Assembly (NCBI GenBank): GCA_963709785.1
Contig: CAVPXT010000007.1
Location: 137,613-201,612 of the forward strand
Length of the DNA stretch: 64,000 nucleotides
Source: an uncultured Actinomycetota bacterium
GTDB taxonomy: Bacteria > Actinomycetota > Actinomycetes > Actinomycetales > Dermatophilaceae
Direction: 5' to 3'
A program made the translations under genes and the position numbers. The notes beneath the pieces were generated by a model. That model was not told the DNA's origin and did not search any database. It saw only the letters and a program-made list of their open reading frames with translations. Each line of letters starts with the position of its first letter. The stretch's first letter is position 1. Positions 4,786 to 32,505 of the stretch are shown here, in pieces.

Positions 4786-4801
4786 ATACCCCAGGGGGTA
4801 T
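4786..4801. promoter_or_regulatory. CsoR/CstR-type operator-like palindrome ATACCCCAGGGGGTAT (site 1 of 8)
   Basis: 16-bp inverted repeat fitting ATACCC-N4-GGGTAT. Lies 39 bp upstream of the rhodanese lipoprotein start, in the divergent region shared with bdhA. Confidence 0.6.
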
Positions 4802-4905
4802 GAGGTGGCGATGTGCTCCGACCAGACCGCGCCCACACCGTCCTCCGGGTTTTGTGGCGTCCGCACACATCAGGGGCCGGCGGCGTGCTCCCTAGGGTCC
4901 GAGCC

Positions 4906-5676
4906 ATGACGGAGCCCAACGCCGCACCCACCGCCGACCTCGACGGCCGGGTCGCCCTCGTCACCGGCGCCGCCAGCGGCATCGGCGCCGCGGTCGCCGA
5001 GGCCCTCGCCGCCGCGGGAGCCGTGGTCCACGCCGTCGACCGTGACGCCGACGCGCTGGGCCGCTTCGACACGGTCGAGCGGGTCGAGCCGCTCGTCGCC
5101 GACCTCGCCGACCTCGGCGGGCTCGCCGCCCTCCCGACCGCGGTCGACATCCTCGTGAACAACGCCGGGATCCAGCACGTCAGCCCGATCGAGGACTTCC
5201 CGGTCGAGCGCTTCGACCACATCCTCGACCTCATGCTCGTCGGGCCCTTCCGGCTCGTCCGCCAGTCCCTCCCCCACATGTACGCGCGCGGCTGGGGGCG
5301 CATCGTCAACGTCTCGAGCGTGCACGGGCTCCGGGCCAGCGCCTACAAGGCGGCGTACGTCACCGCCAAGCACGGGCTCGAGGGACTGTCCAAGGTCACC
5401 GCGCTCGAGGGTGGCCCGAAGGGCGTGACGTCGAACTGCGTCAACCCCGCGTACGTGCGGACCCCCCTCGTCGAGAAGCAGATCGCGGACCAGGCCCGCA
5501 CCCACGGCATCCCGGAGTCGGAGGTCGTCGAGTCGGTGATGCTCGAGCCCGTCGCCGTCAAGCGCCTCGTCGAGCCCGAGGAGGTCGCCGCGCTCGCACT
5601 CTTCCTCTGCGGACCGGCCTCGGCGTCGGTCAACGGGGCGTCGTTCGCGATGGACGGCGGGTGGAGCGCCCACTGA
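4906..5676 (+). CDS. bdhA: 3-hydroxybutyrate dehydrogenase (SDR)
   Basis: LDGRVALVTGAASGIG, NNAGIQHVSPIEDFP, YKAAYVTAKHGLEGL, VNPAYVRTPLVEKQI and a DGGWSAH tail resemble BdhA. ATG at 4906 (MTEPNAAP) is preferred over the ORF-track start at 4813. Confidence 0.75.
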   Translation: MTEPNAAPTADLDGRVALVTGAASGIGAAVAEALAAAGAVVHAVDRDADALGRFDTVERVEPLVADLADLGGLAALPTAVDILVNNAGIQHVSPIEDFPVERFDHILDLMLVGPFRLVRQSLPHMYARGWGRIVNVSSVHGLRASAYKAAYVTAKHGLEGLSKVTALEGGPKGVTSNCVNPAYVRTPLVEKQIADQARTHGIPESEVVESVMLEPVAVKRLVEPEEVAALALFLCGPASASVNGASFAMDGGWSAH

Positions 5677-7547
5677 GGGCCGCCGGGGGCATCCCGGTCC
5701 CTAGGATCGACGACGTGGCGAGCGCGGCGGAGGACCCGGATGCCGAGGGGGCCCTGCGCCTCCTCGAGCAGCTGGCCGCGGGCGCGACCGTGGCCGACCT
5801 CGCGTCGGCTCCTGCCGGTGCTCGTGCCCGCGAGCTCGCACTCCAGGTGGCCGCGGCGCGCGAGGTGCACCAGCGGCGGGAAGCCGGCCTCTCCGCGCTC
5901 CTCGACACCGCCCGCGCCCTCGCGAGCGAGAGCGACACGGGCCAGGTGCTCGACGCCATCGTCCGCCGGGCCCGCGCCCTCATCGGCACCGACCTCACCT
6001 ACCTCACGCTGCACGACCCGGACCGCGGCGACACCTACATGCGGGCGACGGACGGGTCGGTCTCGGCCGCGTTCCAGTCGGTGCGCCTCGACCTCGGTGC
6101 CGGGCTCGGTGGGCTCGTCGCGTCGACCCGCAAGCCGTACTGGACCGCCGACTACTGGAACGACGACCGCTTTCGGCACACGACCGACATCGACGGTGCG
6201 GTGTCCGAGGAGGGCATCGTCGCGATCTGCGGGACACCGCTGCTCGTCGAGAACGAGTTCGTGGGCGTGCTCTTCGCCGCCAACCGCTCGCCGCGCCCGT
6301 TCACGCGGGAGGAGGTCGGCCTGCTGGGCAACCTCGCGACGCTCGCCGCCGTCACGCTCGTCCAGACCCGCGCGCTCGTCGATGCCGAGTCGGCCCTCGC
6401 GGCGCTGTCCGAGGCGCACGAGACGGTGCAGCAGTACGCCGACGGCATCGAGAAGGCGGCGGCGGCCCACGACCGGTTCGCCTCGCTCGTCCTCGAGGGC
6501 GGGGGCGTCGACGACCTGACGCACGCCCTCGCCGACCTGCTCGGCGGGTGGGCCGCGCTCGTCGGCGAGGACGGCTCGGTGCGCAGCACCACGCCCGGGG
6601 CGGCCGTCCCCACGCACTTCCCCGACCTCGGCGCCGGGCGCCTCGTCACCTCCGGCGACGTCCACGGCCTCGCGGTCGCGACGGCCGAGGAGCACCTGGC
6701 GACCCTGTTCGTGGGCGGTGCCGGGGACCTCGCCGATGCCGACCGCCGCACGGTCGAGCGGGCGGGCGTCGTCACCGCCCTCGTGCTCCTCTTCGAACGG
6801 CAGGCCGCCGACGCCCGGCAGTCGGCGCGCAACCGGGTGCTCTCCGAGCTCGTCGCCGCGCGCGGGCCGGTGGAGGACCGGCTCCAGCTCGCCCGCTCGG
6901 CCGGCGTGGACCCCGACCGGCCGTACTGCCTCCTCGTCCTGCGCGGCGACCCCGGCGCGTCGACGCGGGCCCTCGCGCTGTCCGCGACGGCGGCCACCGG
7001 TGAGGGCGGGCTCGTCGGGGTGCACGACGGCGACGTCGTCGCCCTCGTGGCGGGCTCGGACCCCGACGAGCTCGCCCGCCGGGTGGCCGCGAGGGTCGGG
7101 CGCCGCGGCGAGGCCACGGTGGCGGGGGTGGGCCCGCTGACCGGGCTCGACGGCGTCCCGGCGGCGCACGACGAGGCGGTGCGCACCGTCGCGGCGCTCG
7201 TCGCGCTCGGGCACCGGGGGCGCGGGGCGGCGGCGACCCACCTGGGGTTCGCCGGGCTCATCGTCGGGTCGGACCCGGACGTCGCGTCCTACGTGGGCCG
7301 CGAGCTCGGCCCGCTGCTCGACTACGACGAGCGGCGCGGCACCGACCTCGTCGGGACGCTCGCGGCGTACTTCGACGCCGGACGCAGCCCCCGGCACGCC
7401 GCGACCCGGCTGCACGTGCACGTCAACACGGTGGCGCAGCGGCTCGAGCGGATCGGCGCCCTGCTCGGGGACGACTGGCAGGACCCCGACCACTCCCTCG
7501 AGCTCCAGCTGGCCCTGCGGATGCGTCGCCTGCTCGCCACCCCCTGA
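5661..7547 (+). CDS. PucR-family transcriptional regulator with N-terminal GAF domain
   Basis: GAF-like region (VLDAIVRRARALIGTDLTYLTLHD...) and a C-terminal PucR HTH (GTLAAYFDAGRSPRHAATRLHVHVNTVAQRLERI). Start is uncertain because it overlaps the bdhA end. Confidence 0.8.
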   Translation: MERPLRAAGGIPVPRIDDVASAAEDPDAEGALRLLEQLAAGATVADLASAPAGARARELALQVAAAREVHQRREAGLSALLDTARALASESDTGQVLDAIVRRARALIGTDLTYLTLHDPDRGDTYMRATDGSVSAAFQSVRLDLGAGLGGLVASTRKPYWTADYWNDDRFRHTTDIDGAVSEEGIVAICGTPLLVENEFVGVLFAANRSPRPFTREEVGLLGNLATLAAVTLVQTRALVDAESALAALSEAHETVQQYADGIEKAAAAHDRFASLVLEGGGVDDLTHALADLLGGWAALVGEDGSVRSTTPGAAVPTHFPDLGAGRLVTSGDVHGLAVATAEEHLATLFVGGAGDLADADRRTVERAGVVTALVLLFERQAADARQSARNRVLSELVAARGPVEDRLQLARSAGVDPDRPYCLLVLRGDPGASTRALALSATAATGEGGLVGVHDGDVVALVAGSDPDELARRVAARVGRRGEATVAGVGPLTGLDGVPAAHDEAVRTVAALVALGHRGRGAAATHLGFAGLIVGSDPDVASYVGRELGPLLDYDERRGTDLVGTLAAYFDAGRSPRHAATRLHVHVNTVAQRLERIGALLGDDWQDPDHSLELQLALRMRRLLATP

Positions 7548-7626
7548 CGCGCGGCCCGTCCCGGGCGAGGTCGCTCTCGCTAGACTCCGGGGGATTCGGC
7601 AGGCCCTGCGAAGCACCCGCTCGGCG

Positions 7627-14130: not shown

Positions 14131-14146
14131 ATACCCCCTAGGGTAT
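14131..14146. promoter_or_regulatory. CsoR/CstR-type operator-like palindrome ATACCCCCTAGGGTAT (site 2 of 8)
   Basis: Fits ATACCC-N4-GGGTAT. Lies 59 bp upstream of the MBL-rhodanese gene start at 14205. Confidence 0.6.
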
Positions 14147-14204: not shown

Positions 14205-15581
14205 ATGATCTTCACCCAGTACTACCTCGACTGCCTCTCCCAGGCCGCCTACCTCGTCGGTGACGAGACCTCCGGCCAGGCCGTCGTCGTCGACCCCCGC
14301 CGCGACGTCGCCGAGTACGTCGAGGACGCCCGCGCCCACGGCCTCACCATCGTCGGGGTCATCAACACCCACTTCCACGCCGACTTCGTCTCCGGCCACC
14401 TCGAGCTGGCGCGCGAGACCGGCGCCTGGATCGGCTACGGCGAGGCCGCGCAGACCGACTTCCCGGCGCGCCACCTCGCCGACGGCGAGCGGATCTCGCT
14501 CGGCGACGTGACCCTCGAGATCATGACGACCCCGGGGCACACGCCGGAGTCGATCTCGGTCCTCGTGTTCGAGCACGCGGACGACGACGTCGCCTACGGC
14601 GTCCTCACCGGCGACGCACTCTTCATCGGGGACGTCGGCCGCCCGGACCTCCTCGCGTCGATCGGGGTCACCGCGGACGAGCTCGGCCGGATGCTCTACG
14701 ACTCCGTACAGCACAAGCTCATGGGTCTCGACGACGCCGTCCGGGTCTTCCCGGCCCACGGCGCCGGCTCGGCCTGCGGCAAGAACCTCTCGACGGAGCG
14801 CCAGTCGACGATCGGCGAGCAGCGGGCGTTCAACTACGCGTGCCAGCCGATGACGGAGGACGCGTTCCTCGCCGTGGTCACCGCCGGGCAGCCGAGCGCC
14901 CCCGAGTACTTCGTGTACAACGCCGTCCTCAACCGGCAGCAGCGCGACATCCGCGACCTCGACGTCACGGTGCCTGCTCTGTCCCCCGACGAGGTCGACG
15001 CCGCCCTGGCCGCCGGTGCCGCCGTGCACGATGCCCGCGACCCGCAGGAGTTCGCCGCCGCGCACCTCGAGGGCGCGGTCAACGTGCCCGTCGACGGCCG
15101 GATGGCGGAGACGGTCGGCATGGTCTTCTCGCCCGAGCAGTCCATCGTCGTCATCGCCCCCGAGGGCCAGGAGCAGGAGGTCGCCACCCGGTTCGCCCGG
15201 ATCGGCTACGACCACGTGCTCGGCTACGTCGCCGACCCCGAGGCCTACTTCCTCGGCCACGCGGACAGCGTCCGGCACGCGAGCCGCCTCACGGTGGCGG
15301 ACGCCGCCGAGGCCTTCGCCGGTGGCGACGTCCAGGTGGTCGACATCCGCAACGCGGGTGAGGTCGAGACCGGCATGGTGCCGGGCGCCCGCCACGTCGC
15401 GCTCGCCGAGCTGGGTCGCCGTGTCGACGAGCTCGACGTGACCCGTCCCGTCGTCGTCTACTGCGCCGGTGGCTGGCGCAGCTCGGTCGCGGCGAGCCTG
15501 CTGCGGAGCAAGGGCTTCGCGGACGTCTCGGACGTGCTCGGCGGCTACGGCGCCTGGGAGCAGGCGCACGCCCGCGCCTGA
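14205..15581 (+). CDS. MBL-fold persulfide-dioxygenase-like domain fused to two rhodanese domains (CstB/Blh-type)
   Basis: Metallo-beta-lactamase motif INTHFHADFVSGH. C-terminal rhodanese with VVVYCAGGWRS active-site loop. GGAGGA RBS before the ATG. Confidence 0.85.
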   Translation: MIFTQYYLDCLSQAAYLVGDETSGQAVVVDPRRDVAEYVEDARAHGLTIVGVINTHFHADFVSGHLELARETGAWIGYGEAAQTDFPARHLADGERISLGDVTLEIMTTPGHTPESISVLVFEHADDDVAYGVLTGDALFIGDVGRPDLLASIGVTADELGRMLYDSVQHKLMGLDDAVRVFPAHGAGSACGKNLSTERQSTIGEQRAFNYACQPMTEDAFLAVVTAGQPSAPEYFVYNAVLNRQQRDIRDLDVTVPALSPDEVDAALAAGAAVHDARDPQEFAAAHLEGAVNVPVDGRMAETVGMVFSPEQSIVVIAPEGQEQEVATRFARIGYDHVLGYVADPEAYFLGHADSVRHASRLTVADAAEAFAGGDVQVVDIRNAGEVETGMVPGARHVALAELGRRVDELDVTRPVVVYCAGGWRSSVAASLLRSKGFADVSDVLGGYGAWEQAHARA

Positions 15582-17664: not shown

Positions 17665-17838
17665 GCCTCATCGTACCGAACACCTGTTCGAGGCACAAGA
17701 CCCGATCCACACCTGTTCACCTACAGCACAGCGCGTTTCGCCGTCCGTACACGAAGTGACACATTCGTCGAAAGTGGTACGCCCGCAGACGCTCCGGCAG
17801 CGGCGCAGAGGGCCTCCTACAGGTGGCAGGCTGGCCCC

Positions 17839-18894
17839 GTGCGAGCCCTCGTCTACGACGCCTTCCGGACCGACCCCTACGTCACCGACCTCCCGGACCC
17901 GACCCCTCCCCCGGGCGCCGCGGTGGTCCGGGTCGCCGCGTCCGGGCTCTGCCGCAGCGACTGGCACGGCTGGATGGGCCATGACGCCGACATCGCGACC
18001 TTCCCCCACGTGCCCGGCCACGAGCTCGCCGGCACGGTCGAGTCGGTCGGCGACGGTGTCGACCCGTCGTGGCTCGGGCGCTCGGTCACCGCGCCCTTCG
18101 TCTTCGCCTGCGGGCGGTGCCCCACCTGCGCCGCCGGCGACGGCCAGGTCTGCCCCAACCAGCGCCAGCCCGGGTTCACCGACCCCGGTTCCTTCGCGGA
18201 ACGAGTCGTCGTCCATGCCGCCGGCACCAACCTCGTCGCCCTCCCCGACGCCGTCCCGGCGCACCTCGCGGCGGGCCTCGGCTGCCGGGTCGCCACGGCC
18301 CACCGCGCCGTCGTCACCCGCGGCCGACTCGCCGCTGACGACACCGTCGTCGTGCTCGGTTGTGGCGGAGTCGGACTCGCAGCGGTACGGATCGCCACGT
18401 CCCACGGCGCCCGGGTCTGCGCCGTCGACGTCGACCCCGGCTCCCGCGACCTGGCGGCAGCGCTCGGCGCCGAGCTGACCCTCGACGGCACCCTCGCCGA
18501 GGACGCCCTCGCCGCAGCCGTCGCGGACTGGTCCACCGGCGGGGCCCACCTGTCGCTCGACGCGGTCGGCTCACCCACCACCGCGCGGTCCGGCATCCTC
18601 GCGCTGCGGCGCCGGGGGCGCCACGTCCAGGTCGGCCTCCTGCCCCCCGCCGCCGGACGCGTCGACATCCCGATGGAGCGCGTCATCGGGTGGGAGCTCG
18701 ACGTGCTCGGCAGCCACGGCATGGCCGCCGCCGACTACGTGGGACTCCTCGCCGAGGTCGCGTCCGGCACCCTCGAGCTCGACGCGCTCCTGGCGCCCGG
18801 CGAGCCGGTCGGTCTCGAGGAGGCGGGCCGCCTTCTCAGCCGGATGGGCGAGACGGCCTCCCGCGGAATGGTCCTCGTCGACCCGAGCCGCTAG
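17839..18894 (+). CDS. zinc-binding alcohol dehydrogenase family protein
   Basis: GTG at 17839 (VRALVYDAF...), GLCRSDWH, GHELAG, structural-zinc CGRCPTCAAGDGQVC, GCGGVG Rossmann. The upstream 500 codons of ORF 16321..18894 are antisense to the HNH pseudogene. Confidence 0.85.
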   Translation: MRALVYDAFRTDPYVTDLPDPTPPPGAAVVRVAASGLCRSDWHGWMGHDADIATFPHVPGHELAGTVESVGDGVDPSWLGRSVTAPFVFACGRCPTCAAGDGQVCPNQRQPGFTDPGSFAERVVVHAAGTNLVALPDAVPAHLAAGLGCRVATAHRAVVTRGRLAADDTVVVLGCGGVGLAAVRIATSHGARVCAVDVDPGSRDLAAALGAELTLDGTLAEDALAAAVADWSTGGAHLSLDAVGSPTTARSGILALRRRGRHVQVGLLPPAAGRVDIPMERVIGWELDVLGSHGMAAADYVGLLAEVASGTLELDALLAPGEPVGLEEAGRLLSRMGETASRGMVLVDPSR

Positions 18895-19538
18895 TCGGTC
18901 AGCGCGCCACTCGCCCGGTCCATCCTCGGCCCGTGGGCGGGGAGCAGCCCCAGGACGACTCCCAGAGCGCACGCGGCAGCGTGGTAGTTGCCCGCCACGG
19001 CGATCAGCGCGACCGCGGCGAACATCCCCAGGGCCGGCGCCAGGACCCACCGGCGCGCCATGGACAGAAGGGCGTTCGACGCCACCGCGCAGGTGAGCGC
19101 GAGGGTGGCCATCGAGTTCCCACCACCGTCCGGCTGCCACCTGAGGACGAGCAGGTTGGAGCCGACGACTGCCGCCCAGAAGGTCAGCCACGTCCGGCGT
19201 CCACCCCAGTAGGCGGACGCCGTGGTCACGGCGATCGCGAGGATCACGAGGTTCGAGACGGCACCGAAGAGGTCCCCGTCCTGCACCACGGCACTGGTCA
19301 CGAGCCGCCAGAGCTCGCCCTCGCGGATCCGGCCGACGTCGCGCGCGAGCGCGTCGTAGAGCCCGGGCACGGCGAGCTGGAGGAGCGAGGGCACCGCCAC
19401 GGCGAGCCACAACAGCCCGGCGGCAGCGGACGGCCGCGGAGGGCTGGGCTCCCGGCCACGGGCCGACGCCCGGAGGGCGACCAACGCACCGAGCACCACC
19501 ACGACGTAGAACGCCACTCCGACGACGGTCTGACCCAC
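18891..19538 (-). CDS. rhomboid-family membrane protein
   Basis: GELWRLVTSAVVQ motif, GGGNSMA (GxSG-like) and a later His in a TM helix. GTG at 19538 is preferred because the longer ORF would overlap the upstream gene. Confidence 0.6.
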   Translation of the reverse strand: MGQTVVGVAFYVVVVLGALVALRASARGREPSPPRPSAAAGLLWLAVAVPSLLQLAVPGLYDALARDVGRIREGELWRLVTSAVVQDGDLFGAVSNLVILAIAVTTASAYWGGRRTWLTFWAAVVGSNLLVLRWQPDGGGNSMATLALTCAVASNALLSMARRWVLAPALGMFAAVALIAVAGNYHAAACALGVVLGLLPAHGPRMDRASGALTD

Positions 19539-19552
19539 GGGGCCACTCTGCC

Positions 19553-20230
19553 TCAGACGAGGTCGCGGACGTACTCGACGTCGCCGAGGAGCTCCAGCCG
19601 GCGCCACAGGACGCTGCCCGGCACCGCCTGGGTGGCGTGACAGCGCACCGCGTCGAGCTGGCGCGTCCGGTCCACCGCCACGGCCGTGAGCGCCTCACGG
19701 GGGTGCCCGGCGAAGCCGCCACCGGTCTCCGCCCGCAGCGCCGTGGCGACGTCGTCGGGCAGGGCCCACCCGAGTACCGGGGCGCCCAGCCGCTCCCCGA
19801 CGGCGACCGCCGCGAGGGAGGCCACCTCGTGGTCGGCGTGCCCGGTGACGCCGGCCACCGGGTCGAAGACGAGCATCCCGTCGGGCGCGACGCGGCTCAC
19901 CTCCTCGGCCACCTCGTCCTGCAACCCCGCAGGGTCGAGCCCCGACAGGCCCCCGTCGGGGTGCCCGCACAGCGTCGTGTGCTGCACGCCCAGCGCCACG
20001 GCGGCGGAGTGCAGCTCGTCGGCCCGCACCGCCGCGAGGTCGCCCTCGACCTCACCGAGCGTCGAGGCCTCGCCCCGGGTGAGGCACAGGACGGACACCT
20101 CGGCGCCCTCGCGCACGAACCGGTCGAGCAGGGCCCCGAGGCCGAACGACTCGTCGTCGGGGTGGGCCACGACGACGAGCACCCGGCCCCACGGCGGCAG
20201 CCGACCACCCACCTCCCGAGCCGCGCTCAC
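19553..20230 (-). CDS. PIG-L (LmbE) family deacetylase
   Basis: VLVVVAHPDDESFGLG and HADH motifs. Confidence 0.8.
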   Translation of the reverse strand: MSAAREVGGRLPPWGRVLVVVAHPDDESFGLGALLDRFVREGAEVSVLCLTRGEASTLGEVEGDLAAVRADELHSAAVALGVQHTTLCGHPDGGLSGLDPAGLQDEVAEEVSRVAPDGMLVFDPVAGVTGHADHEVASLAAVAVGERLGAPVLGWALPDDVATALRAETGGGFAGHPREALTAVAVDRTRQLDAVRCHATQAVPGSVLWRRLELLGDVEYVRDLV

Positions 20231-21225
20231 TCCGGGACGCAGATCCGGCCGAGGGCGGCGGCGCGCAGGGTCAGCGCCGACACCGCGAGGACCAGCACCG
20301 TGGTGGCCGCGAGGAGCAGCCCCGCGACGACGTCGTAGGCCACCTGGGGCCGCGCCCCGGCCATCGCCACGGCGGCCGCGGAGGCCGCCGCCAGCGGGAA
20401 GGTGTAGGCCCAGTACGGCAGGGCGAACGGGATGCGGCGCAGGCGCCCCACCTGGGTGACGAGCACGGCGACGAACGCCATCGCGGCGGCATACAGCACG
20501 TGCTCGACCGCGTCACCGGTGGCGCCGGTCAGGGACTGCCACGACAGCATGGCCACGGCCGGGGGCGCGATGAAGATCGCGACGGTGGGCAGCAGCTTCT
20601 CCGGCAGGACCGAGGCGTCGAGGAGGACCCGCTGGAGCAGCAGCGGGAGCAGCCCGAGCCAGAAGACGACGCCGACCCCGAAGGCGAACCAGCCGAGCTC
20701 GACCGAGCCGATCTCGGGCGCCGCGAGCGGTGTGACGACGTTGCCGACCACCGGGATGAACCACGCCGGGGTCACGGTGCCGTGGACGATGTCGGTCCGG
20801 CCGAACCAGGCACTGACCACCGCCAGGGTCGCGACCAGGTGCCCCACGGCGCCCACCCACCACAGCACCGAGGCCACACCCGGCGCGACCGACTGGCCGG
20901 CCGTCGCGAGGACGAGGAGCGAGACGGTCACGGTCGGCGCGAAGGTCATCCGCACCGGGTGCCGCAGCTCGGCCCGTGCTGCGGCCGGGAAGCGGGCCCA
21001 CTTGACGAGGTACGCCCCGCCGACGACGAGGAAGGCCGCCACCGCGAGCGCGAGGAAGACCAGGGCCGGCCACTCCGGGACGTCCCACACCCGGCTCGCA
21101 CGCCGCCACGCGAGCGAGACGCCGCCGATCCCCATGACGGACGAGAAGAGGGTCACCGGCAGGTGCGCGAGCGAGCGCTCGACGGCGCCGGACCGGTCCG
21201 TCACCACCTCGGCCCGGGTGCTCAT
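20227..21225 (-). CDS. TehA/SLAC1/Mae1 (TDT) family anion channel, possible sulfite/tellurite exporter
   Basis: 10-TM-like sequence MSTRAEVV...HLPVTLFSSVMGIGGVSLAW. ATG at 21225 overlaps the peroxiredoxin stop (ATGA). The rest of ORF 20227..21825 is an artefact. Confidence 0.8.
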   Translation of the reverse strand: MSTRAEVVTDRSGAVERSLAHLPVTLFSSVMGIGGVSLAWRRASRVWDVPEWPALVFLALAVAAFLVVGGAYLVKWARFPAAARAELRHPVRMTFAPTVTVSLLVLATAGQSVAPGVASVLWWVGAVGHLVATLAVVSAWFGRTDIVHGTVTPAWFIPVVGNVVTPLAAPEIGSVELGWFAFGVGVVFWLGLLPLLLQRVLLDASVLPEKLLPTVAIFIAPPAVAMLSWQSLTGATGDAVEHVLYAAAMAFVAVLVTQVGRLRRIPFALPYWAYTFPLAAASAAAVAMAGARPQVAYDVVAGLLLAATTVLVLAVSALTLRAAALGRICVPE

Positions 21226-21968
21226 GACCCGGTGCGGATGGCTGCCTCGACGGAGTCGGCGGACAGCTCCTTGGTGCAGAAGAACCAGTCGACGCACTCC
21301 ACGCCCTCCTCCGGCTCCTCCATCCGGTCCTTCGCGGTGCCGCACGAGCCGGCCGGCGGCACGATGACCCGCTCGCCGGGGCGCCAGTCGGCCGGGGTCG
21401 CGACGTCGAACGCGTCCGCGGTCTGGAGCGCCTTGACCACCCGGAGCAGCTCGTCGAAGTTCCGGCCGAGGCTCAGCGGGTAGTAGATGATCGTCCGGAT
21501 GATGCCGGCGGGGTCGATGACGAAGACCGCGCGGACCGCCTTGGTGGTGTCCTCCCCGGGCATGATCATCCCGTACTTGCGCGCGACCTCCATCGAGACG
21601 TCGTCGATGAGCGGGAAGGTCACCTCGACGTCCTTCATGTCGCGGAAGACCATCGTGTCCTTGATCGTCCGCAGCCAGGCGATGTGGCTGTAGAGGCCGT
21701 CGATGGAGAGCCCGACGAGATCGGTGTTGTACGCGGCGAACTCGGACTGCATCGACGCGAAGGTCATGAACTCCGTCGTGCACACGGGCGTGAAGTCGGC
21801 GGGGTGCGAGAAGAGGATCACCCACCGACCGGCGTGGTCCCCGGGGAAGCTGATCGGCCCCTGGGTCGTCTGCGCGGTGAACTCCGGGGCGGGGTCGCCG
21901 ATGCGGGGCATCGTCGTGGGTGCCGCCGTGGGCGTGGTCTCGATGACGGTCATGCTGTTCTCCTCCAT
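21222..21968 (-). CDS. peroxiredoxin (Prx6-like 1-Cys type) with Cys-containing C-terminal extension
   Basis: FSHPADFTPVCTTE peroxidatic-Cys motif. C-terminal PPAGSCGTAKDRMEEPEEGVECVDWFFC. Alternative start at 21953. Confidence 0.9.
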   Translation of the reverse strand: MEENSMTVIETTPTAAPTTMPRIGDPAPEFTAQTTQGPISFPGDHAGRWVILFSHPADFTPVCTTEFMTFASMQSEFAAYNTDLVGLSIDGLYSHIAWLRTIKDTMVFRDMKDVEVTFPLIDDVSMEVARKYGMIMPGEDTTKAVRAVFVIDPAGIIRTIIYYPLSLGRNFDELLRVVKALQTADAFDVATPADWRPGERVIVPPAGSCGTAKDRMEEPEEGVECVDWFFCTKELSADSVEAAIRTGS

Positions 21969-21997: not shown

Positions 21998-22013
21998 ATA
22001 CCCCCCTGGGTAT
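21998..22013. promoter_or_regulatory. CsoR/CstR-type operator-like palindrome ATACCCCCCTGGGTAT (site 3 of 8)
   Basis: 30 bp upstream of the peroxiredoxin start. Extended form is TATACCCCCCTGGGTATA. Confidence 0.6.
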
Positions 22014-22017: not shown

Positions 22018-23358
22018 TCAGCGGCACCCGCACCGCTCCGGCACCGCCCGTCGCCCGGCGCCGCCCTCGTCGAGCACCCCGACCCAGTGGGCCCGGGACC
22101 ACACGACGACGGGGGCCCTGCCCCGCACCGAGGCGCAGACCCACGCGGCCGTCATCACCCCGACGTCGCCGACGTGGCCGATGCGGAACAGCGACGTGGT
22201 CTCGGTGACCGCCGCGCCCTCCCCCGCGCGCAGGACGGTCCGCACCTCCGGCGCGACGGCCAGGGCGTTGATGGCGACGGCGACGTTGTCGAGGTCCTCC
22301 GAGCCCATGGCAGCGACGGCCGTCGCCCGCTCGACACCGACCCGGATGAGGACCGAGCGAGCGCTGGCGTCGCCGATGACGACGGGGAGCCGGCTCTCCC
22401 GGGCCGCCGCGAGGTTCGGCGCGTGCTCGGCCCGTTCGACGACGACGACCGGGACCCGGAGGGCGCGCAGCAGCTGGGCGACGCGCAGCCCCACCTGGCC
22501 GAGGCCGGCGACCACGACGTGGTCCCGACGCGGCACGCGTCGGGGCCCGACGAGCGCGGCCGTGCGGGCCCCGACGATCCAGTCGACGAGGCCCGCGACG
22601 AGGGCGCCGGTGAAGGCGATGCCGACGAGCATCAGCACCCCCGAGACCCCGAGGTACCAGCCGGGGGCGCCGTGCACCTCCGCCTCCCCGGGACCGACCG
22701 TCGCGACGAGTCGCGCCGAGGTGTAGAAGCCCTCGACGAGCCCCTCGTGGAGGACGACCGCGGCGAGGACCCACTCGATGCCGATGGTCGCGAGGAGCCC
22801 GCCGAGCCCGAGCAGGAGGATCCCCTCGGAGCCACCGTGCCGGCGGGGCAGCCAGCGGCCGACCCGTCGGCCCCATCCGTCCGGGTCAGGGGCCGAGGCC
22901 CGCAGCGCGACCCCCTCGTCGGTCTCGACGAGCTCGCGGACGCCCTCGGCCCCGGCGAGCACCGCGAGCACCTCGGGCCGCACGCACGCGGCGACGATGG
23001 CCGGGGCCGCCACATCGGCCGGTGAGGTCACCGTGCACCGGGGGAGCACCTCGGCGAGGTGCCGGCCGAGGGTGCGGTCGAAGATCGTCACGACGATCGG
23101 GACGCCGGGCTGGAGGTGCTCGACGAGGAGCGCGAAGCGCAGGGCCGGGAGGTCACCCCGGACCACGACGGCCACTCCGGCGACCGGGCGCTCGAGCGCC
23201 GCACGCAGGGCGGCCTCCTCCGGCTCGAGGAGGTGGACGACGTCGACCCCCTCGTCGCGCAGGAGGGCGCAGACGAGACGGGTGGCCTCGAGGTCGCCGA
23301 TGACGAGGGTGCGGGACGGGGCCACGAGCACCTCCGGGGCGACGGGCGTATCCGCCAC
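22018..23358 (-). CDS. potassium-channel-like protein: 2-TM pore region flanked by TrkA-N/RCK NAD-binding domains
   Basis: GLGQVGLRVAQLL Rossmann motif, central TM pair with pore-loop-like ATVGPGE, and a second RCK-like N-terminal domain. GTG at 23358 is chosen so the CDS does not run through the operators (alternative GTG at 23400). Confidence 0.65.
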   Translation of the reverse strand: MADTPVAPEVLVAPSRTLVIGDLEATRLVCALLRDEGVDVVHLLEPEEAALRAALERPVAGVAVVVRGDLPALRFALLVEHLQPGVPIVVTIFDRTLGRHLAEVLPRCTVTSPADVAAPAIVAACVRPEVLAVLAGAEGVRELVETDEGVALRASAPDPDGWGRRVGRWLPRRHGGSEGILLLGLGGLLATIGIEWVLAAVVLHEGLVEGFYTSARLVATVGPGEAEVHGAPGWYLGVSGVLMLVGIAFTGALVAGLVDWIVGARTAALVGPRRVPRRDHVVVAGLGQVGLRVAQLLRALRVPVVVVERAEHAPNLAAARESRLPVVIGDASARSVLIRVGVERATAVAAMGSEDLDNVAVAINALAVAPEVRTVLRAGEGAAVTETTSLFRIGHVGDVGVMTAAWVCASVRGRAPVVVWSRAHWVGVLDEGGAGRRAVPERCGCR

Positions 23359-23442: not shown

Positions 23443-23458
23443 ATACCCCCAGAGGTAT
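23443..23458. promoter_or_regulatory. operator-like palindrome ATACCCCCAGAGGTAT (site 4 of 8, 1 mismatch)
   Basis: In the divergent region between the channel-like gene and SQR. Confidence 0.5.
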
Positions 23459-23489: not shown

Positions 23490-23505
23490 ACACCCCCCCG
23501 GGTAT
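23490..23505. promoter_or_regulatory. operator-like palindrome ACACCCCCCCGGGTAT (site 5 of 8, 1 mismatch)
   Basis: 42 bp upstream of the SQR start and 47 bp from site 4. Confidence 0.45.
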
Positions 23506-23546: not shown

Positions 23547-25004
23547 ATGGCCGATGTCGTCGTTCTGGGCGCCGGCGTGGCCGGGCACACTGCCGCGCTG
23601 CACCTCAGTCGCCTGCTGCCCAAGGGCCACACGGTGACGGTGGTGTCGCCGAACTCCCACTGGAACTGGATCCCGAGCAACATCTGGGTGGGGGTCGGGA
23701 AGATGGGGAAGAAGGACGTCGTCTTCCCGCTCGAGCCGGTGTACCGGCGCAAGGGGATCCGTTTCGTCCAGGCGAAGGCCGTCGCGATCCGTCCCGACGG
23801 GGACGCGGACGACGAGCGCGGCGCCGTCGACGTCGTCCACACGAGCCCCGACCGCGACGGCGAGGAGCAGCGGCTCCGCTACGACTACCTGGTCAACGCC
23901 ACCGGGCCGCAGCTGCGGTTCGGGATGACGGAGGGACTCGGCCCGGACGAGGGCCACACCGTCTCCGTGTGCACCGCCGACCATGCCGTCCACGCCGCCG
24001 ACGCGCTCCGCGCGAGCATCGACCGGATGCGCGCCGGCGAGCGCCAGACCCTCGTCGTCGGGATGGGTCACGGGACCTGCACCTGCGAGGGCGCCGCGTT
24101 CGAGTACGTCTTCAACGTCGACCACGAGCTGCGCGAGGCCGGGGTGCGCGACCTGGCCCGGCTCGTCTACCTCACGAACGAGGCCGCCCTCGGCGACTTC
24201 GGCGTCGACGGGATGACCTTCGCCGAGCGGGGGTTCGAGACGACCTCCGAGCTCTGGACCGGCAGCCTCTTCCGCGAGCGCGGCGTGGAGGCGGTCCTCG
24301 GCGCGCACGTCCACCGCGTGGAGCCCGGGGTCGTCCACTACGAGACCCTCGACGGCGAGATGCACGAGCTCGCGTTCGACTTCGGGATGCTCCTGCCGCC
24401 TTTCGGCGGCGTCCCGCTCGCGGCGTACGACCGCGACGGCGAGGACGTCACGGATCGTCTCTTCGCCCCCAGCGGGTTCATGCGGGTGGACGCGGACTAC
24501 ACCGCCAAGCCCTACGAGGACTGGCGTGGTGACGACTGGCCACGCACCTACCTCGCCCCCGGCTACGAGAACATCTTCGCCGTCGGCATCGCCTTCGCTC
24601 CCCCGCACCAGATCTCCCGACCGCGCAAGAGCCCCAACGGCACGGTCATCGCTCCGTCCCCACCCCGGACGGGGATGCCGTCCGGCGTCATGGGCAAGAC
24701 GGCCGCCATGACCATCAACGACCGGATCCGCACGGGAGCCGCCGCCCCGGCCCACGAGGCGTCGATGGCCCGGATGGGCGCGGCGTGCGTCGCCTCCGCG
24801 GGAAGCGGGATGCGCCGCGGCTCGGCCGCCGCGATGACGATGATGCCCGTCGTCCCCGACTACTCCCGCTACCCGACCGGACGCGACCTCGAGGACACCC
24901 GCGGCGAGATCGGGCTCTCCGGCCACTGGGTCAAGCTCATGCTCCACCACCTCTTCATCCACAAGGCCAAGGGCCGCCTCGGCTGGCAGCTGATCCCGGA
25001 ATGA
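23547..25004 (+). CDS. sulfide:quinone oxidoreductase-like FAD-dependent pyridine nucleotide-disulfide oxidoreductase
   Basis: VVVLGAGVAGHTAA FAD fold, NSHWNWIPSNIWVG, conserved Cys regions GTCTCEGAAFEY and GAACVASAG. AAGGAG RBS. Confidence 0.8.
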   Translation: MADVVVLGAGVAGHTAALHLSRLLPKGHTVTVVSPNSHWNWIPSNIWVGVGKMGKKDVVFPLEPVYRRKGIRFVQAKAVAIRPDGDADDERGAVDVVHTSPDRDGEEQRLRYDYLVNATGPQLRFGMTEGLGPDEGHTVSVCTADHAVHAADALRASIDRMRAGERQTLVVGMGHGTCTCEGAAFEYVFNVDHELREAGVRDLARLVYLTNEAALGDFGVDGMTFAERGFETTSELWTGSLFRERGVEAVLGAHVHRVEPGVVHYETLDGEMHELAFDFGMLLPPFGGVPLAAYDRDGEDVTDRLFAPSGFMRVDADYTAKPYEDWRGDDWPRTYLAPGYENIFAVGIAFAPPHQISRPRKSPNGTVIAPSPPRTGMPSGVMGKTAAMTINDRIRTGAAAPAHEASMARMGAACVASAGSGMRRGSAAAMTMMPVVPDYSRYPTGRDLEDTRGEIGLSGHWVKLMLHHLFIHKAKGRLGWQLIPE

Positions 25005-25165
25005 GCACCATGGACGAGAACCCCCAGCCGGTCGCCGACCTCTCGCGCGCCCCGCTGCCCACCGAGGGCACCCTGCGGAAGCGCCGCAGCCTCCCGCTGC
25101 AGGCCGTGCGCTTCGCGGCCTTCAACCTCCGGATCATGCGGATGGTCCTCAAGGGCCACCACTGA
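25001..25165 (+). CDS. small hypothetical protein (54 aa) translationally coupled to SQR
   Basis: ATGA overlap with the SQR stop. MSTMDENPQPVADLSRAPLPTEGTLRKRRSLPLQAVRFAAFNLRIMRMVLKGHH has an amphipathic basic C-terminus. No recognisable family. Confidence 0.45.
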   Translation: MSTMDENPQPVADLSRAPLPTEGTLRKRRSLPLQAVRFAAFNLRIMRMVLKGHH

Positions 25166-25202: not shown

Positions 25203-25835
25203 ATGGGACCTGGCCGCTGGTGGGATGAACGCGCCCTCCCCCGGCTCACGCAGCGGAGCTGCCAGGGGCCGGACGCCGAGCGCTGGCGCCGCCCCCTGTG
25301 CGCCGGGGCGCAGGGTGTCGTGCTCGACATCGGCTTCGGGTCCGGCCCGAACCTCCCGTTCTACCCGGAGGCCGTGACCCGCGTGCTCGCCGCCGAGCCC
25401 TCCGACCTCGCGTGGGAGCTCGCCGCGGACCGGGTCGCCGCCTTCGGCCGCCCGGTGGAGCGGGTCTCCCTCGACGCCGCCGACCTCTCGTCCCTGGCCG
25501 ACGACTCGGTCGACACCGCCGTCACCGCCTGGGTGCTCTGCACCGTGCCCGACCTGGAGGGCGCCCTGGCCGAGGCACGCCGCGTCCTACGCCCGGGCGG
25601 CGAGCTGCGCTTCGTCGAGCACTCCCTCGCCCCGGACGCCGGGACCGCCCGCTGGCAGCGCCGCGTCCAGCCGCTCTGGGGACGCGTCGCGGGCGGGTGC
25701 CACGTGGACCGCGACCTCCCCCGCCTCGTCGAGACCGCGGGGTTCGACATCGAGCTCGGGCAGAGCCGCTACGTCGCGGCCGGCCCGTTCCGGGTCTGGG
25801 GCTGGTTCGTCGCCGGCACGGCCCGTCCGGCCTGA
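25203..25835 (+). CDS. class I SAM-dependent methyltransferase
   Basis: Motif I VLDIGFGSGPN and post-I/II RVLRPGGELRFVEH. Confidence 0.8.
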   Translation: MGPGRWWDERALPRLTQRSCQGPDAERWRRPLCAGAQGVVLDIGFGSGPNLPFYPEAVTRVLAAEPSDLAWELAADRVAAFGRPVERVSLDAADLSSLADDSVDTAVTAWVLCTVPDLEGALAEARRVLRPGGELRFVEHSLAPDAGTARWQRRVQPLWGRVAGGCHVDRDLPRLVETAGFDIELGQSRYVAAGPFRVWGWFVAGTARPA

Positions 25836-29772: not shown

Positions 29773-29804
29773 AGGAGAGCACGCGCCAGCACCGGGAGTC
29801 AGGG

Positions 29805-30446: not shown

Positions 30447-30507
30447 GCCCGCCGGACACGACGACGCCGCGCCACCCGGGGGTGGCGCGGCGTCGAGGCC
30501 GGTCGCG

Positions 30508-30669
30508 TCAGCGGCCGAAGAGCTTGGAGAAGAAGCCGGTGCTCGGCTCGCCCTCGTGGCCGGCGCAGCGGTTCGCCGACGGGACGCCGCGCATCACCTG
30601 GTCGACGTGCTGGCCGCATCCGGCCCAGGTCGTCTTGCCGCACTTGCGGCAGTTCACGGCTCGGCACAT
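30508..30669 (-). CDS. small Cys-rich protein (53 aa), not in ORF track
   Basis: My reverse translation gives MCRAVNCRKCGKTTWAGCGQHVDQVMRGVPSANRCAGHEGEPSTGFFSKLFGR with no internal stop. Five Cys arranged CxxxxCxxC...C...C, and a perfect operator 45 bp upstream. Confidence 0.6.
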   Translation of the reverse strand: MCRAVNCRKCGKTTWAGCGQHVDQVMRGVPSANRCAGHEGEPSTGFFSKLFGR

Positions 30670-30713
30670 GGGTGGGTACTCCTCGGGAAACGGGAACTGG
30701 GTCGCGGAGAAGC

Positions 30714-30729
30714 ATACCCCATGGGGTAT
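30714..30729. promoter_or_regulatory. CsoR/CstR-type operator palindrome ATACCCCATGGGGTAT (site 6 of 8, perfect)
   Basis: Perfect 16-bp palindrome abutting the stop of the methyltransferase gene, upstream of the small Cys-rich gene. Confidence 0.65.
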
Positions 30730-31353
30730 CTAGTCGGCGAGTCGCCGGAGGACGACGACGGTGTCGAGCGCCGGGCGGTCCGCACCCTCGACGGCCCGCT
30801 CGCGCAGCTCGGCGGAGAGGACCTCGACCGGCAGACCGGCCGCCGAGGCGACGACGGCGTCGGGGTCGTGGAGCACGGCGGGGTCCTGCGGGCCGCCCAC
30901 GCCCTCGGCGAGGTTGCGCTCGGCGTGGCAGACGACGAGCACCGTGCCACCGGGCGCCGCGGCGGCGACACCGCGGGAGAGGGCGGTGGACCAGTCGGCG
31001 TACGGGAGCTGGAGGTAGGCGAAGAGGACGAGGTCGTAGCCGGCGGCGCCCTCGGGGGGCACGGCGGGCTCCAGCGCGTTCGCGACGACCGCGCGGAAGG
31101 GGCCGGAGCCGTCACCGAGCCGGGTGGCCGCGATCTCGCGGGCCCGCCCCACGGCGACCGGGGAGAAGTCGGCCGAGGTGGCGTCCCAGCCGCGCTCGGC
31201 GAGCCAGAGGGCGTTGCGCCCCTCGCCCGCGGCGACGTCCAGGGCCCGGCCGGGGGCCAACGGGCCCGCCACCTCCGCGACGAAGACGTTCGGGGTGCTC
31301 GACCACACGAGGTCGGCGCCGGAGTAGCGCTCGTCCCAGGCGGAGGAGTCCAT
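30730..31353 (-). CDS. class I SAM-dependent methyltransferase (TehB-like)
   Basis: MDSSAWDERYSG...ALDVAAGEGRNALWLAERGWDATSADFS. ATG at 31353 shares 1 nt with the repressor stop. Confidence 0.8.
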   Translation of the reverse strand: MDSSAWDERYSGADLVWSSTPNVFVAEVAGPLAPGRALDVAAGEGRNALWLAERGWDATSADFSPVAVGRAREIAATRLGDGSGPFRAVVANALEPAVPPEGAAGYDLVLFAYLQLPYADWSTALSRGVAAAAPGGTVLVVCHAERNLAEGVGGPQDPAVLHDPDAVVASAAGLPVEVLSAELRERAVEGADRPALDTVVVLRRLAD

Positions 31354-31697
31354 CAGGCGAGGGAGAGGAAGAGCTTCTCCATCGACTCGACGTCCATGGA
31401 GCCGGCCTCGGGGTTGGTGATGCACTGGCGCAGGCCGAGTGCGATGACCGCGAACCCGGCCCGGTCGAGGGCCTTGGAGACCGCCGCCAGCTGGGTGACG
31501 ATGTCCTGGCACTCGCGGCCGTCCTCGATCATCTTGAGGATCCCGCCGATCTGCCCCTGGGCCCGCTTGAGCCGCTTGACCACGGCCTGCATCTCGGTGG
31601 GGTCGAGCTCCATCGCGGGGCCTCCTGGGAGAACGGTCGGGGACGCGACGATGGTACCCGTGGCGGTATCGGTCGGAGTGCTGCTGGTGCTGCTCAC
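31353..31697 (-). CDS. CsoR/RcnR/FrmR (DUF156) family repressor, CstR-like Cys-x-Cys fingerprint
   Basis: VVKRLKRAQGQIGGILKMIEDGRECQDIVTQLAAVSKALDRAGFAVIALGLRQCI. Has the two family Cys, but Gly at the position 4 residues before the second Cys, where Cu-sensing CsoR has His. May start at the internal ATG (MELDPTEM). Confidence 0.85.
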   Translation of the reverse strand: MSSTSSTPTDTATGTIVASPTVLPGGPAMELDPTEMQAVVKRLKRAQGQIGGILKMIEDGRECQDIVTQLAAVSKALDRAGFAVIALGLRQCITNPEAGSMDVESMEKLFLSLA

Positions 31698-31708
31698 GGC
31701 ATGTCCTC

Positions 31709-32029
31709 TCAGGCGGCGTGGGGGCCCGCGACGACCGCGTGCCCGGCGGTGAGCCAGGCGGCGGTCCCGCCCTCGACGTTGAGCGCCTCGTAGCCGAGGC
31801 CGCTCAACAGGTCGGTGACGGCGCGGCTGCGGTTGCCGCTCTGGCAGATGACGTGGACGGGACGGCCCTTCGGCAGGTCGCCGAGCACCGTGGTGACGCG
31901 GGAGAGCGGCGCGAGCACGGCCCCGGGCACGTGGCCCCGGACGTACTCGGCCGGCTCACGGACGTCGAGGACGAAGGCGCCGTCGGCGTGGCGTGCGGCG
32001 AGGGTGGTGATGTCGATCGTGCGAGTCAT
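31709..32029 (-). CDS. single-domain rhodanese sulfurtransferase
   Basis: VLDVREPAEYVRGHVPGAV ... VICQSGNRS active-site loop. 106 aa. Confidence 0.9.
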   Translation of the reverse strand: MTRTIDITTLAARHADGAFVLDVREPAEYVRGHVPGAVLAPLSRVTTVLGDLPKGRPVHVICQSGNRSRAVTDLLSGLGYEALNVEGGTAAWLTAGHAVVAGPHAA

Positions 32030-32038
32030 GACGGCACC

Positions 32039-32054
32039 ATACCCCGGGGGGTAT
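32039..32054. promoter_or_regulatory. CsoR/CstR-type operator-like palindrome ATACCCCGGGGGGTAT (site 7 of 8)
   Basis: Only 9 nt upstream of the rhodanese start. Embedded in the longer near-palindrome GGCACCATACCCCGGGGGGTATGGTGCC. Confidence 0.6.
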
Positions 32055-32077
32055 GGTGCCGTCCACGCAGCAACCGG

Positions 32078-32440
32078 TCAGCCGGCCTGCGTGGCGACCT
32101 GGGCACGGACCTCGTCCATGTCGAGGGCCTTGATGCCGTCGACGACCTGCTCGAGCGCCGCGGGCGGCAGCGCGCCGGCCTGGCGGAAGACGAGGATGCC
32201 GTCGCGGAAGCCCATGAGCGTGGGGATCGAGGTGATCTGGGCGGCACCGGCGAGCGCCTGCTCGGCCTCGGTGTCGACCTTGCCGTGCACGACGTCGTCG
32301 TGCTTCTCGCTCGACTTCTCGTACGTGGGCGCGAACTGGCGACACGGACCGCACCAGGAGGCCCACCAGTCGACGAGCACGATGCCCTCGCCGGTGATGG
32401 TGTTCTCGAAGGTCTCGGCCGTGAGGTCCACGGTGGCCAT
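32078..32440 (-). CDS. thioredoxin
   Basis: ATG at 32440 with GAGGAG RBS. VLVDWWASWCGPCRQFAP active site. Confidence 0.9.
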   Translation of the reverse strand: MATVDLTAETFENTITGEGIVLVDWWASWCGPCRQFAPTYEKSSEKHDDVVHGKVDTEAEQALAGAAQITSIPTLMGFRDGILVFRQAGALPPAALEQVVDGIKALDMDEVRAQVATQAG

Positions 32441-32489
32441 GGTCAGCTCCTCAGATGTTCTCGGGTACTCGTTCGCGGATGACAACACG

Positions 32490-32505
32490 ATACCCCTATG
32501 GGTAT
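32490..32505. promoter_or_regulatory. CsoR/CstR-type operator-like palindrome ATACCCCTATGGGTAT (site 8 of 8)
   Basis: In the 103-bp divergent region between thioredoxin (start 32440) and the second MBL-rhodanese gene (start 32544). Confidence 0.6.

Follow-up and report, generated by a model that had tools for sequence, protein, structure and literature searches.

A 16-bp palindrome, ATACCC-N4-GGGTAT, recurs in front of sulfur and redox genes in a 64-kb stretch of DNA (hereafter, the window) from an uncultured, Phycicoccus-like actinobacterium of the Dermatophilaceae (contig CAVPXT010000007.1). These palindromes are very probably the operators of a CstR-type persulfide repressor, encoded in the window at 31353–31613 and an orthologue-class relative of Streptomyces coelicolor ScCsoR, which would control about nine sulfide-detoxification transcription units. 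The evidence comes from the placement and spacing of the palindrome, its conserved association with the same genes in related genomes and metagenomes, the residues of the regulator, and the geometry of the sites relative to predicted promoters.

The palindrome lies between genes, close to start codons

An exact search of the window with ATACCCNNNNGGGTAT returned six sites (4786, 14131, 21998, 30714, 32039, and 32490), and allowing one mismatch added two more (23443 and 23490). The resulting count of eight agrees with an earlier note made from the sequence without database searches; neither search matched anything when the window was shuffled with its dinucleotide composition preserved. Because the window has a G+C content of ~74%, a palindrome tipped with A/T is improbable from composition alone. 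At ≤1 mismatch no further copy of ATACCC-N4-GGGTAT occurs in the 64 kb, so the note's statement that the motif is found nowhere else holds at that threshold, but a two-mismatch search returned exactly one extra site, the weaker one at 31654–31669 (GTACCCGTGGCGGTAT). All nine sites fit the looser published consensus ATACC-N6-GGTAT with at most one mismatch each (one for site 31654). They are:

Operator 1, 4786..4801, ATACCCCAGGGGGTAT: on the minus strand, the start of the rhodanese lipoprotein gene rhdL is 38 bp downstream.
Operator 2, 14131..14146, ATACCCCCTAGGGTAT: 58 bp upstream of pdo1.
Operator 3, 21998..22013, ATACCCCCCTGGGTAT: 44 bp upstream of prx, in the 64-bp gap past the stop codon of the channel-like gene.
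Operator 4, 23443..23458, ATACCCCCAGAGGTAT, one mismatch: faces the channel-like gene (minus strand), 117 bp away.
Operator 5, 23490..23505, ACACCCCCCCGGGTAT, one mismatch: 41 bp upstream of sqr.
Operator 6, 30714..30729, ATACCCCATGGGGTAT, a perfect palindrome: abuts the mt1 stop codon and lies 44 bp ahead of the gene for a 53-aa Cys-rich protein (s53).
Operator 7, 32039..32054, ATACCCCGGGGGGTAT: 9 bp before the start codon (ATG) of rhd, within a perfect palindrome of 34 bp.
Operator 8, 32490..32505, ATACCCCTATGGGTAT: in the 103 bp that separate the divergent genes trx (49 bp away) and pdo2 (38 bp away).
Operator 9 (weaker), 31654..31669, GTACCCGTGGCGGTAT on the plus strand and ATACCGCCACGGGTAC on the minus strand: 40 bp upstream of cstR.

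As the note had stated, all eight of the stronger sites are intergenic. Intergenic DNA makes up ~6% of the sequence (arithmetic from the gene calls of a near-identical contig), and the chance that eight of eight sites would fall there is ~1e-10. These independent gene calls belong to ENA ERZ25039549 contig_38599, a metagenome contig with identical gene order and several identical proteins, which was reached through exact-sequence look-ups of the rhodanese and of PDO1, the pdo1 product; look-ups of the 114-aa open reading frame (ORF) of the regulator and of the sulfide:quinone oxidoreductase (SQR) homologue gave no match. On that contig the regulator is called with 86 aa and the thioredoxin with 120 aa, and a 54-aa ORF overlaps the sqr stop codon. 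The distance of 9–60 bp to a start codon that had been claimed for all eight sites applies to seven (9–58 bp); operator 4 departs from it, with sqr 88 bp away on one side and the divergent channel-like gene 117 bp away on the other. The label of a perfect palindrome applies to 30714 only, where 8/8 inner pairs are matched. Site density peaks around cstR, with four operators in 1.8 kb.

The spacing of the two arms is strict. We compared the window with 80 genome loci around cstR homologues and three near-identical metagenome loci (83 loci, 1.43 Mb; individual loci carry L numbers below). Of these loci, 79 are non-redundant; they contain 111 exact copies of ATACCC-Nn-GGGTAT with n = 4, versus 0, 0, 1, 0, and 0 copies with n = 2, 3, 5, 6, and 7. 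The core TACC-N6-GGTA, a dyad with N8 spacing, is present at 8 sites in the window versus none with N9, and the corresponding counts in the related loci are 148 and 3. The central 4 bp vary among these loci, while arms and spacing stay constant.

The motif and its neighbours are conserved together

The related loci contain 180 motif sites at ≤1 mismatch, of which 164 lie ≤250 bp upstream of a homologue of a window target gene and none lies inside a mapped gene. All eight SQR homologues have a site upstream, seven of them at 33–40 bp, and pairs of sites ahead of sqr are also found in L012, L016, L018, and L023. The motif likewise precedes the homologues of Trx (37/44), Rhd (25/33), s53 (23/39), PDO1 (6/7), Prx (4/5), and rhdL (2/2), and seven of 13 MT2 homologues have an operator of their own. 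It precedes neither mt1 (0/26) nor s54 (0/8), as expected for genes predicted to be internal to operons. Loci of Nostocoides-like metagenome-assembled genomes (L012, L017, and L023) hold 7–8 sites per 20 kb, which suggests that the expanded layout is typical for this bacterial family. Nostocoides/Tetrasphaera-type bacteria are activated-sludge organisms.

A second sample was drawn independently of cstR and consisted of 120 metagenome contigs (L085–L204) bearing ATACCCC-NN-GGGGTAT. Homologues of the window regulon are encoded on 63 of the 120, mostly immediately downstream of the motif. On the unassigned contigs, the top Pfam families among 106 motif-flanking ORFs are Pyr_redox_2 (8) and Rhodanese (6), while Cu-ATPase/HMA domains account for two only. 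Together with the SQR homologue, two CstB-like fusions of a persulfide dioxygenase (PDO) to rhodanese, two rhodaneses, thioredoxin, and peroxiredoxin-TehA in the window, this association across genera and in the motif-first sample upholds the proposal of the earlier note that the sites mark a persulfide-stress gene set.

Downstream ORFs on the unassigned contigs also include Pyr_redox_2 proteins with a dimerisation domain (CoA-persulfide-reductase-like), DUF302 proteins, YgaP-like membrane rhodaneses, and one cytochrome bd oxidase subunit I. As a further observation, L002 differs from the near-identical L001 by an insertion (L002 15568–18900) between the mt2 gene and its neighbour, with a phage-integrase fragment and toxin-antitoxin-like genes of the ribbon-helix-helix (RHH)/DUF6290 type; operator 7 is also absent from L002 at the strict threshold. 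These differences point to strain-level variation in the region.

The regulator has the residues of a persulfide sensor

The regulator is encoded as follows:

cstR, 31353..31613, minus strand: repressor of the CsoR family, 86 aa long and bearing the x-C-x-C fingerprint (C34, C63).

The product matches PF02583 (CsoR/RcnR, DUF156; Trns_repr_metal) with 81 bits versus a cutoff of 22.8, and its best match in the PDB is Streptococcus pneumoniae CstR (7MQ1, E 4e-12). Cys34 and Cys63 align with the sensing residues Cys30 and Cys59 of SpCstR. In an alignment with Geobacillus CsoR, the position of the Cu(I)-ligand His, four residues ahead of the second Cys, is occupied by Gly59, and the RLxR DNA-contact motif reads RLKR. 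On these sequence features we classify the regulator as CstR type and not Cu-CsoR type. Close relatives with 78–98% identity occur in Phycicoccus, Nostocoides/Tetrasphaera, Oryzobacter, and other Dermatophilaceae, which assigns the window to this group. Thus the family member that the earlier note placed at 31353..31697 is present and of the CstR type, but it is shorter than the 114 aa implied there, as homologues and gene calls begin with MELDPTEM after a conserved GGAGG, giving 86 aa. An x-C-x-C fingerprint has been assigned to persulfide sensors, and actinomycete proteins that carry it form cluster 3 of a sequence similarity network (SSN), a large and mostly uncharacterised group of candidate persulfide (RSSH) sensors that includes the S. 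coelicolor “CsoR (CstR)” (Fakhoury 2021, PMC8643695). The phylum, fingerprint, and operator of the window regulator are consistent with membership in this cluster.

With the cstR start at 31613, the ninth site is intergenic, between rhd and cstR. Aligned upstream regions of cstR show (A/G)TACC-N6-GGTA(T/C) at the equal position in nine other loci, and these nine (L017, L023, L005, L008, L009, L018, L021, L026, and L034) also share the overlap with a TAnnnT hexamer at the 3′ end of the site. Site 31654 is therefore predicted to be a lower-affinity autoregulatory operator before an internal cstR-mt1 promoter, which would act besides read-through from rhd.

The probable operators coincide with predicted promoter elements

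A consensus scan of ~21 kb identified two sigma70-like promoters only, and both overlap operators. TCGCCA-17-TATAGT (4811–4783, minus strand) overlaps operator 1 and would drive rhdL, and ATGACA-18-TATATT (32479–32508, plus strand) overlaps operator 8 and would drive pdo2. We further oriented each site toward its assigned gene and counted hexamer start positions relative to the first base past the operator. A TANNNT hexamer is present in 10/10 assigned target directions, at −3 (TATAGT, TATGCT, TACCAT, TATGGT, TATCGT, and TATATT), at −1 (TAGAAT, TAGGCT, and TACGGT), or at −8 (TAGGGT, pdo1), and is found in none of the three non-target directions (site 1 toward the short-chain dehydrogenase/reductase (SDR) gene, site 4 toward sqr, and site 5 toward the channel-like gene). 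At individual sites, TAGAAT adjoins operator 3 on the minus strand, TAGGCT lies on the minus-strand side only of operator 4, and TATCGT at operator 8 faces trx. In the related loci, T stands three bases beyond the operator in 52% of the orientations that face a gene and in 28% of the others. The rhd hexamer, TATGGT, occupies −12 to −7 from the A of the ATG, which predicts a leaderless rhd transcript, and this geometry is shared by five other loci (L004, L007, L012, L017, and L023).

The 3′ arm of the operator thus forms or adjoins a −10-like hexamer, which points to repression through promoter occlusion. Steric repression, with the repressor seated on the promoter spacer and the −10 element, is the simplest reading. 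By analogy with characterised members of the family, from which the binding, stoichiometry, and persulfide chemistry are borrowed, the reduced tetrameric repressor would occupy each ATACCC-N4-GGGTAT site, with two tetramers per operator; placed in the promoter spacer with its 3′ arm at the −10 hexamer (TATnnT or TAnnnT), the occupied site would keep RNA polymerase off. Sulfane sulfur (persulfides and polysulfides), arising from SQR oxidation of H2S or from cysteine catabolism, would modify Cys34 and Cys63 and release the repressor from DNA, so that the ~nine units would be induced jointly. The weaker internal cstR operator in rhd-cstR-mt1 would provide feedback.

Predicted target genes and transcription units

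Gene labels rest on Pfam, NCBIfam, and PDB searches, which confirmed the sulfur and redox neighbours named in the earlier note. The predicted target genes are:

rhdL, 4298..4747, minus strand: rhodanese with a lipoprotein-type signal peptide (…LGAC…).
pdo1, 14205..15581, plus strand: CstB-like, a metallo-beta-lactamase (MBL) domain and two rhodanese stretches (predicted persulfide dioxygenase-sulfurtransferase).
215-aa membrane protein gene, 18891..19538, minus strand: 14 bp past the PIG-L gene.
pigL, 19553..20230, minus strand: PIG-L family deacetylase (BshB/Mca/MshB-like); start overlaps the tehA stop.
tehA, 20227..21225, minus strand: TehA/SLAC1-family anion transporter, ATGA-coupled to prx.
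prx, 21222..21953, minus strand: 1-Cys-type peroxiredoxin (NF009668, 333 bits), heading its unit.
Channel-like gene, 22018..23325, minus strand: K-channel-like protein with two transmembrane helices, a TVGPGE loop, and a TrkA_N domain.
sqr, 23547..25004, plus strand: SQR homologue, Pyr_redox_2.
s54, 25001..25165, plus strand: 54-aa ORF (MSTMDENPQ…LKGHH), with an ATGA overlap with the sqr stop.
mt2, 25203..25835, plus strand: S-adenosylmethionine (SAM) methyltransferase downstream of sqr-s54.
s53, 30508..30669, minus strand: conserved 53-aa Cys/His-rich protein with its own operator.
mt1, 30730..31353, minus strand: TehB-like SAM methyltransferase; start overlaps the cstR stop by 1 nt.
rhd, 31709..32029, minus strand: single-domain rhodanese, heading rhd-cstR-mt1.
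trx, 32078..32440, minus strand: thioredoxin, 120 aa, WCGPC.
pdo2, 32544..33887, plus strand: MBL-fold persulfide-dioxygenase-like domain and rhodanese.
DUF2202 gene, 33949..34713, plus strand: secreted (ferritin-like) protein after pdo2.

We predict about nine units: rhdL; pdo1; prx-tehA-pigL, possibly with the gene for the 215-aa membrane protein as its last; the channel-like gene; sqr-s54-mt2; s53; rhd-cstR-mt1; trx; and pdo2, possibly with the DUF2202 gene as its second. The start/stop overlaps place pigL in the prx operon, and operon extents past overlapping genes, including both of the possible additions, are likewise predictions. The DUF2202 gene stays beside trx and the motif in relatives without pdo2 (L004, L007, L010, and L017). 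The tight packing of 18891–21953 suggests one operon tying a peroxiredoxin to anion export and low-molecular-weight-thiol chemistry.

Both PDO-rhodanese fusions carry Pfam Lactamase_B plus Rhodanese, with the MBL domain N-terminal to the rhodanese, and the two products share 31% identity. In the PDB, the match of PDO1 to 3TP9 spans the entire protein (E 3e-83), and 3R2U, BpPRF, and ETHE1 are further matches. The best PDB matches of the SQR candidate are the SQRs of Acidithiobacillus ferrooxidans (E 1e-38) and Aquifex (E 3e-34), with the C128 and C160 equivalents aligned; its third Cys, in a GAACVAS context, falls outside the aligned region, and NCBIfam SQR models score below cutoff. The s54 ORF follows SQR homologues in eight related loci and has no match in protein family searches. 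In the channel-like protein, an N-terminal Rossmann-like region accompanies a TrkA_N/RCK domain and the TVGPGE loop, a degenerate TVGYG filter, between the two transmembrane helices. Its gene is a probable regulon member through operator 4, backed by the close relatives L001 and L012 only.

The genes that separate the units are unrelated to sulfur, in line with the earlier description of a dispersed set; among their products are a GAF/PucR regulator, SDRs, a hydrolase, a Liv-type ABC transporter, DUF222, an alcohol dehydrogenase, a TetR regulator, and a PALP enzyme. The DUF222 gene (HNH-associated, 13E12-repeat type; 16650–17700, minus strand, from the L084 gene calls) may be the remnant of a mobile element; pdo1 and the prx unit lie on either side of it. 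The SDR gene at 4906–5676 is probably not a target of operator 1, as no −10-like hexamer points toward it, it lies 104 bp away, and a site precedes only 1/6 of its homologues.

Alternative explanations

Several points weigh against control of all these units by a CstR-type persulfide repressor. Binding, induction, and transcription start sites are all computational predictions, and the genome is seen through 64 kb, with the genome-wide frequency of the motif in coding versus intergenic DNA extrapolated from the related loci. Operator 2 offers only a poor −10 candidate, the TAGGGT inside the operator itself, and regulation of the channel-like gene has one mismatched site 117 bp upstream as its sole basis. 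Paralogous CsoR-family proteins, two of which are present in each of L017, L036, L041, and L054, may share or compete for sites, and the membership of Prx and Trx also fits a broader thiol-oxidant signal. This last point leads to the rival in which the sites are CsoR-family operators that answer a more general thiol-reactive inducer (peroxide, disulfide stress, nitroxyl, sulfite, or tellurite/selenite), making the set a general thiol-stress or chalcogen-detoxification regulon. Dithiol sensors of the CsoR family reportedly react with several oxidants, and the peroxiredoxin, thioredoxin, TehA transporter, TehB-like methyltransferase, and PIG-L protein (Mca/BshB-like) are not persulfide-specific. 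The best-conserved targets, however, are SQR, the PDO-rhodanese fusions, and the rhodaneses, the enzymes that define the oxidation of sulfide and persulfide, and the characterised actinomycete homologue ScCsoR responds to polysulfide (HSnH; PMC7533328); we consider a broader inducer unlikely. That the palindromes are bound by a regulator encoded elsewhere, for example a second CsoR/CstR paralogue, with the local cstR as merely one target, is very unlikely. Such a regulator could lie outside the 64 kb in view, some related loci do have two CsoR-family genes, and operators are alike among branches of the family (PMC3902906), but cstR sits within the densest cluster of sites, the loci collected by cstR homology are enriched in the motif (180 sites in 1.43 Mb), and the homologous ScCsoR binds the same consensus (PMC7533328).

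A response to Cu(I) through copper-CsoR operators is suggested by the Pfam family name and by database annotations of “metal-sensitive transcriptional regulator”, and Cu-CsoR operators share TAC/GTA dyads around G/C tracts (PMC3902906). We rejected it on ligand fingerprint, gene content, and dyad spacing and regard it as extremely improbable: Gly replaces the Cu-ligand His; no copZ/copA, HMA, or P-type ATPase gene flanks any site or appears among the other window genes examined, which covered part of the window ORFs; the dyads here are strictly TAC-N8-GTA versus TAC-N9-GTA in S. lividans; and Cu-ATPases make up just the two of 106 flanking ORFs noted above for the metagenome sample. Last, the palindromes could be a dispersed structural repeat (a repetitive extragenic palindrome or miniature inverted-repeat transposable element, or an RNA hairpin or terminator) that binds no protein. 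They are GC-rich, and sites 3, 6, and 7 lie downstream of a same-strand gene; site 7 forms the middle of a perfect palindrome of 34 bp (32030–32063, GACGGCACC-ATACCCCGGGGGGTAT-GGTGCCGTC) that lies just past the trx stop codon and ahead of the rhd ATG and might have a second role as an RNA hairpin at the trx 3′ end. Yet the flanks of the sites are mutually unrelated, and extension past 16 bp is seen at site 7 only and is missing in 5/6 other loci compared, the exception being L006 (Phycicoccus), which has an 8-bp extension of different sequence. In addition, no terminator-like signal was found at any motif site, the central 4 bp are free to vary while arms and spacing are fixed, and the sites keep their distance from start codons in different genera. 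We therefore reject a terminator or longer repeat, and give a structural repeat of any kind next to no credence.

Comparison with published systems

The predicted control of the window genes by a CstR-type repressor finds its closest precedent in S. coelicolor, where a 16-bp operator of ScCsoR (SCO0620), ATACC-N6-GGTAT, was mapped by electrophoretic mobility shift assay (Lu et al. 2020, PMC7533328); the likeness to CsoR/CstR-family operators that the earlier note proposed is borne out by this match. Two copies of the ScCsoR operator lie in the pdo promoter (−48 and −9 relative to the start of transcription), and the stretch between csoR and rhod contains it as well; polysulfide frees the repressor from DNA, for which both Cys are required (PMC7533328). 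The window shares with this system the phylum, two Cys 29 residues apart without a ligand His, the 16-bp operator (equivalent to TAC-N8-GTA), operators by the −10 element or transcription start site, two sites at one promoter, and three kinds of target: a PDO-rhodanese fusion, a single-domain rhodanese, and the regulator itself. The window motif equals the ScCsoR operator plus one further conserved C/G per arm. Whereas the S. coelicolor circuit is a compact set of four genes (csoR, pdo-rhd, tauE, and rhod) without SQR (PMC7533328), the window has nine operators over 28 kb in ~nine transcription units, and adds SQR, a second PDO, the lipoprotein rhodanese, Trx, Prx-TehA-PIG-L, two methyltransferases, s53, s54, and the channel-like gene. 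TauE is absent from the window set, and TehA may fill its anion-export role.

The CstR/cst system of Staphylococcus aureus and the CstR proteins of Enterococcus faecalis, S. mitis, and S. pneumoniae (Luebke 2014; PMC8643695) likewise combine an x-C-x-C repressor of the CsoR family with ATACCC…GGGTAT operator arms, and their targets also include rhodaneses, a PDO-rhodanese (CstB), and SQR. These Firmicute proteins fall in SSN clusters 4 and 10, the actinomycete ones in cluster 3 (PMC8643695). The S. mitis operator, ATACCC-N5-GGGTAT, has one central base more than the N4 of the window (PMC8643695) and is thus also TAC-N9-GTA, in contrast to the strict TAC-N8-GTA of the window and related loci (L004–L083). 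Firmicute CstR regulons are single divergent operons; the window set is scattered, and the note's claim that it exceeds the staphylococcal cst operon in size and scatter is accurate for S. aureus and also holds against the four-gene S. coelicolor circuit. The Cu(I) CsoRs of S. lividans and Mycobacterium tuberculosis resemble the window regulator in fold, in TAC/GTA dyads around G/C tracts, and in a two-tetramer binding model (PMC3902906), but have C-H-C ligands and copZ/copA targets where the window regulator lacks the His; the S. lividans operators are of type 2, with TAC-N9-GTA spacing (PMC3902906). CsoR-family control of larger sulfur-oxidation gene sets is reported for the 11-gene YrkD/CstR cluster of Bacillus licheniformis (PMC9918477) and for TTHA1953 of Thermus thermophilus (PMC10318464); both are reported as contiguous clusters in other phyla, unlike the scattered window set. 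An admittedly incomplete literature search found no paper on an expanded CstR regulon in non-Streptomyces actinobacteria, which is weak evidence of absence.

Candidate new components and significance

A system of this kind is already published: operator, regulator class, and mechanism are known in actinomycetes, and the window holds a larger than usual instance. Three points are modestly new: in Dermatophilaceae the regulon is large and scattered, it has additional conserved members, chiefly s53, and its N8 spacing contrasts with the N9 of Cu-CsoR operators. We propose only tentatively, with confidence below even, that the regulon brings to light parts of the core machinery of actinobacterial persulfide homeostasis that have gone unrecognised, with the N8/N9 spacing as a second strand of that proposal. 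The strongest candidate is s53, which has its own CstR-type operator in many genera. Its invariant residues are C2, C7, C10, C18, H21, C35, and H38, and ~1,600 homologues occur across Actinomycetota (Phycicoccus, Nocardioides, Microbacterium, Rhodococcus, Arthrobacter, and others), all named ones being “hypothetical”. Searches of Pfam and NCBIfam gave no family match for s53, and its AlphaFold model (pLDDT 78), a beta-hairpin and a short helix, gave no fold match in the PDB. Further candidates are mt1, mt2, and s54. Speculatively, mt1, which is translationally coupled to cstR, and mt2 may methylate sulfide, persulfide, or other chalcogens.

The regulon leaves unchanged the understanding of how such repressors work. 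The difference in dyad spacing between CstR-type (N8) and Cu-CsoR (N9) operators may be a simple rule that insulates paralogous regulons in the actinomycete cell. The analysis provides a sequence-predicted map of the persulfide-stress regulon in Phycicoccus and its relatives, extends the four-gene Streptomyces circuit to ~17–18 genes, and nominates as testable new members s53, s54, the two methyltransferases, Prx-TehA-PIG-L, and the channel-like protein. It also yields two rules for spotting CstR regulons in actinobacterial genomes: a strict N4 arm spacing and a −10 hexamer made from the operator arm.

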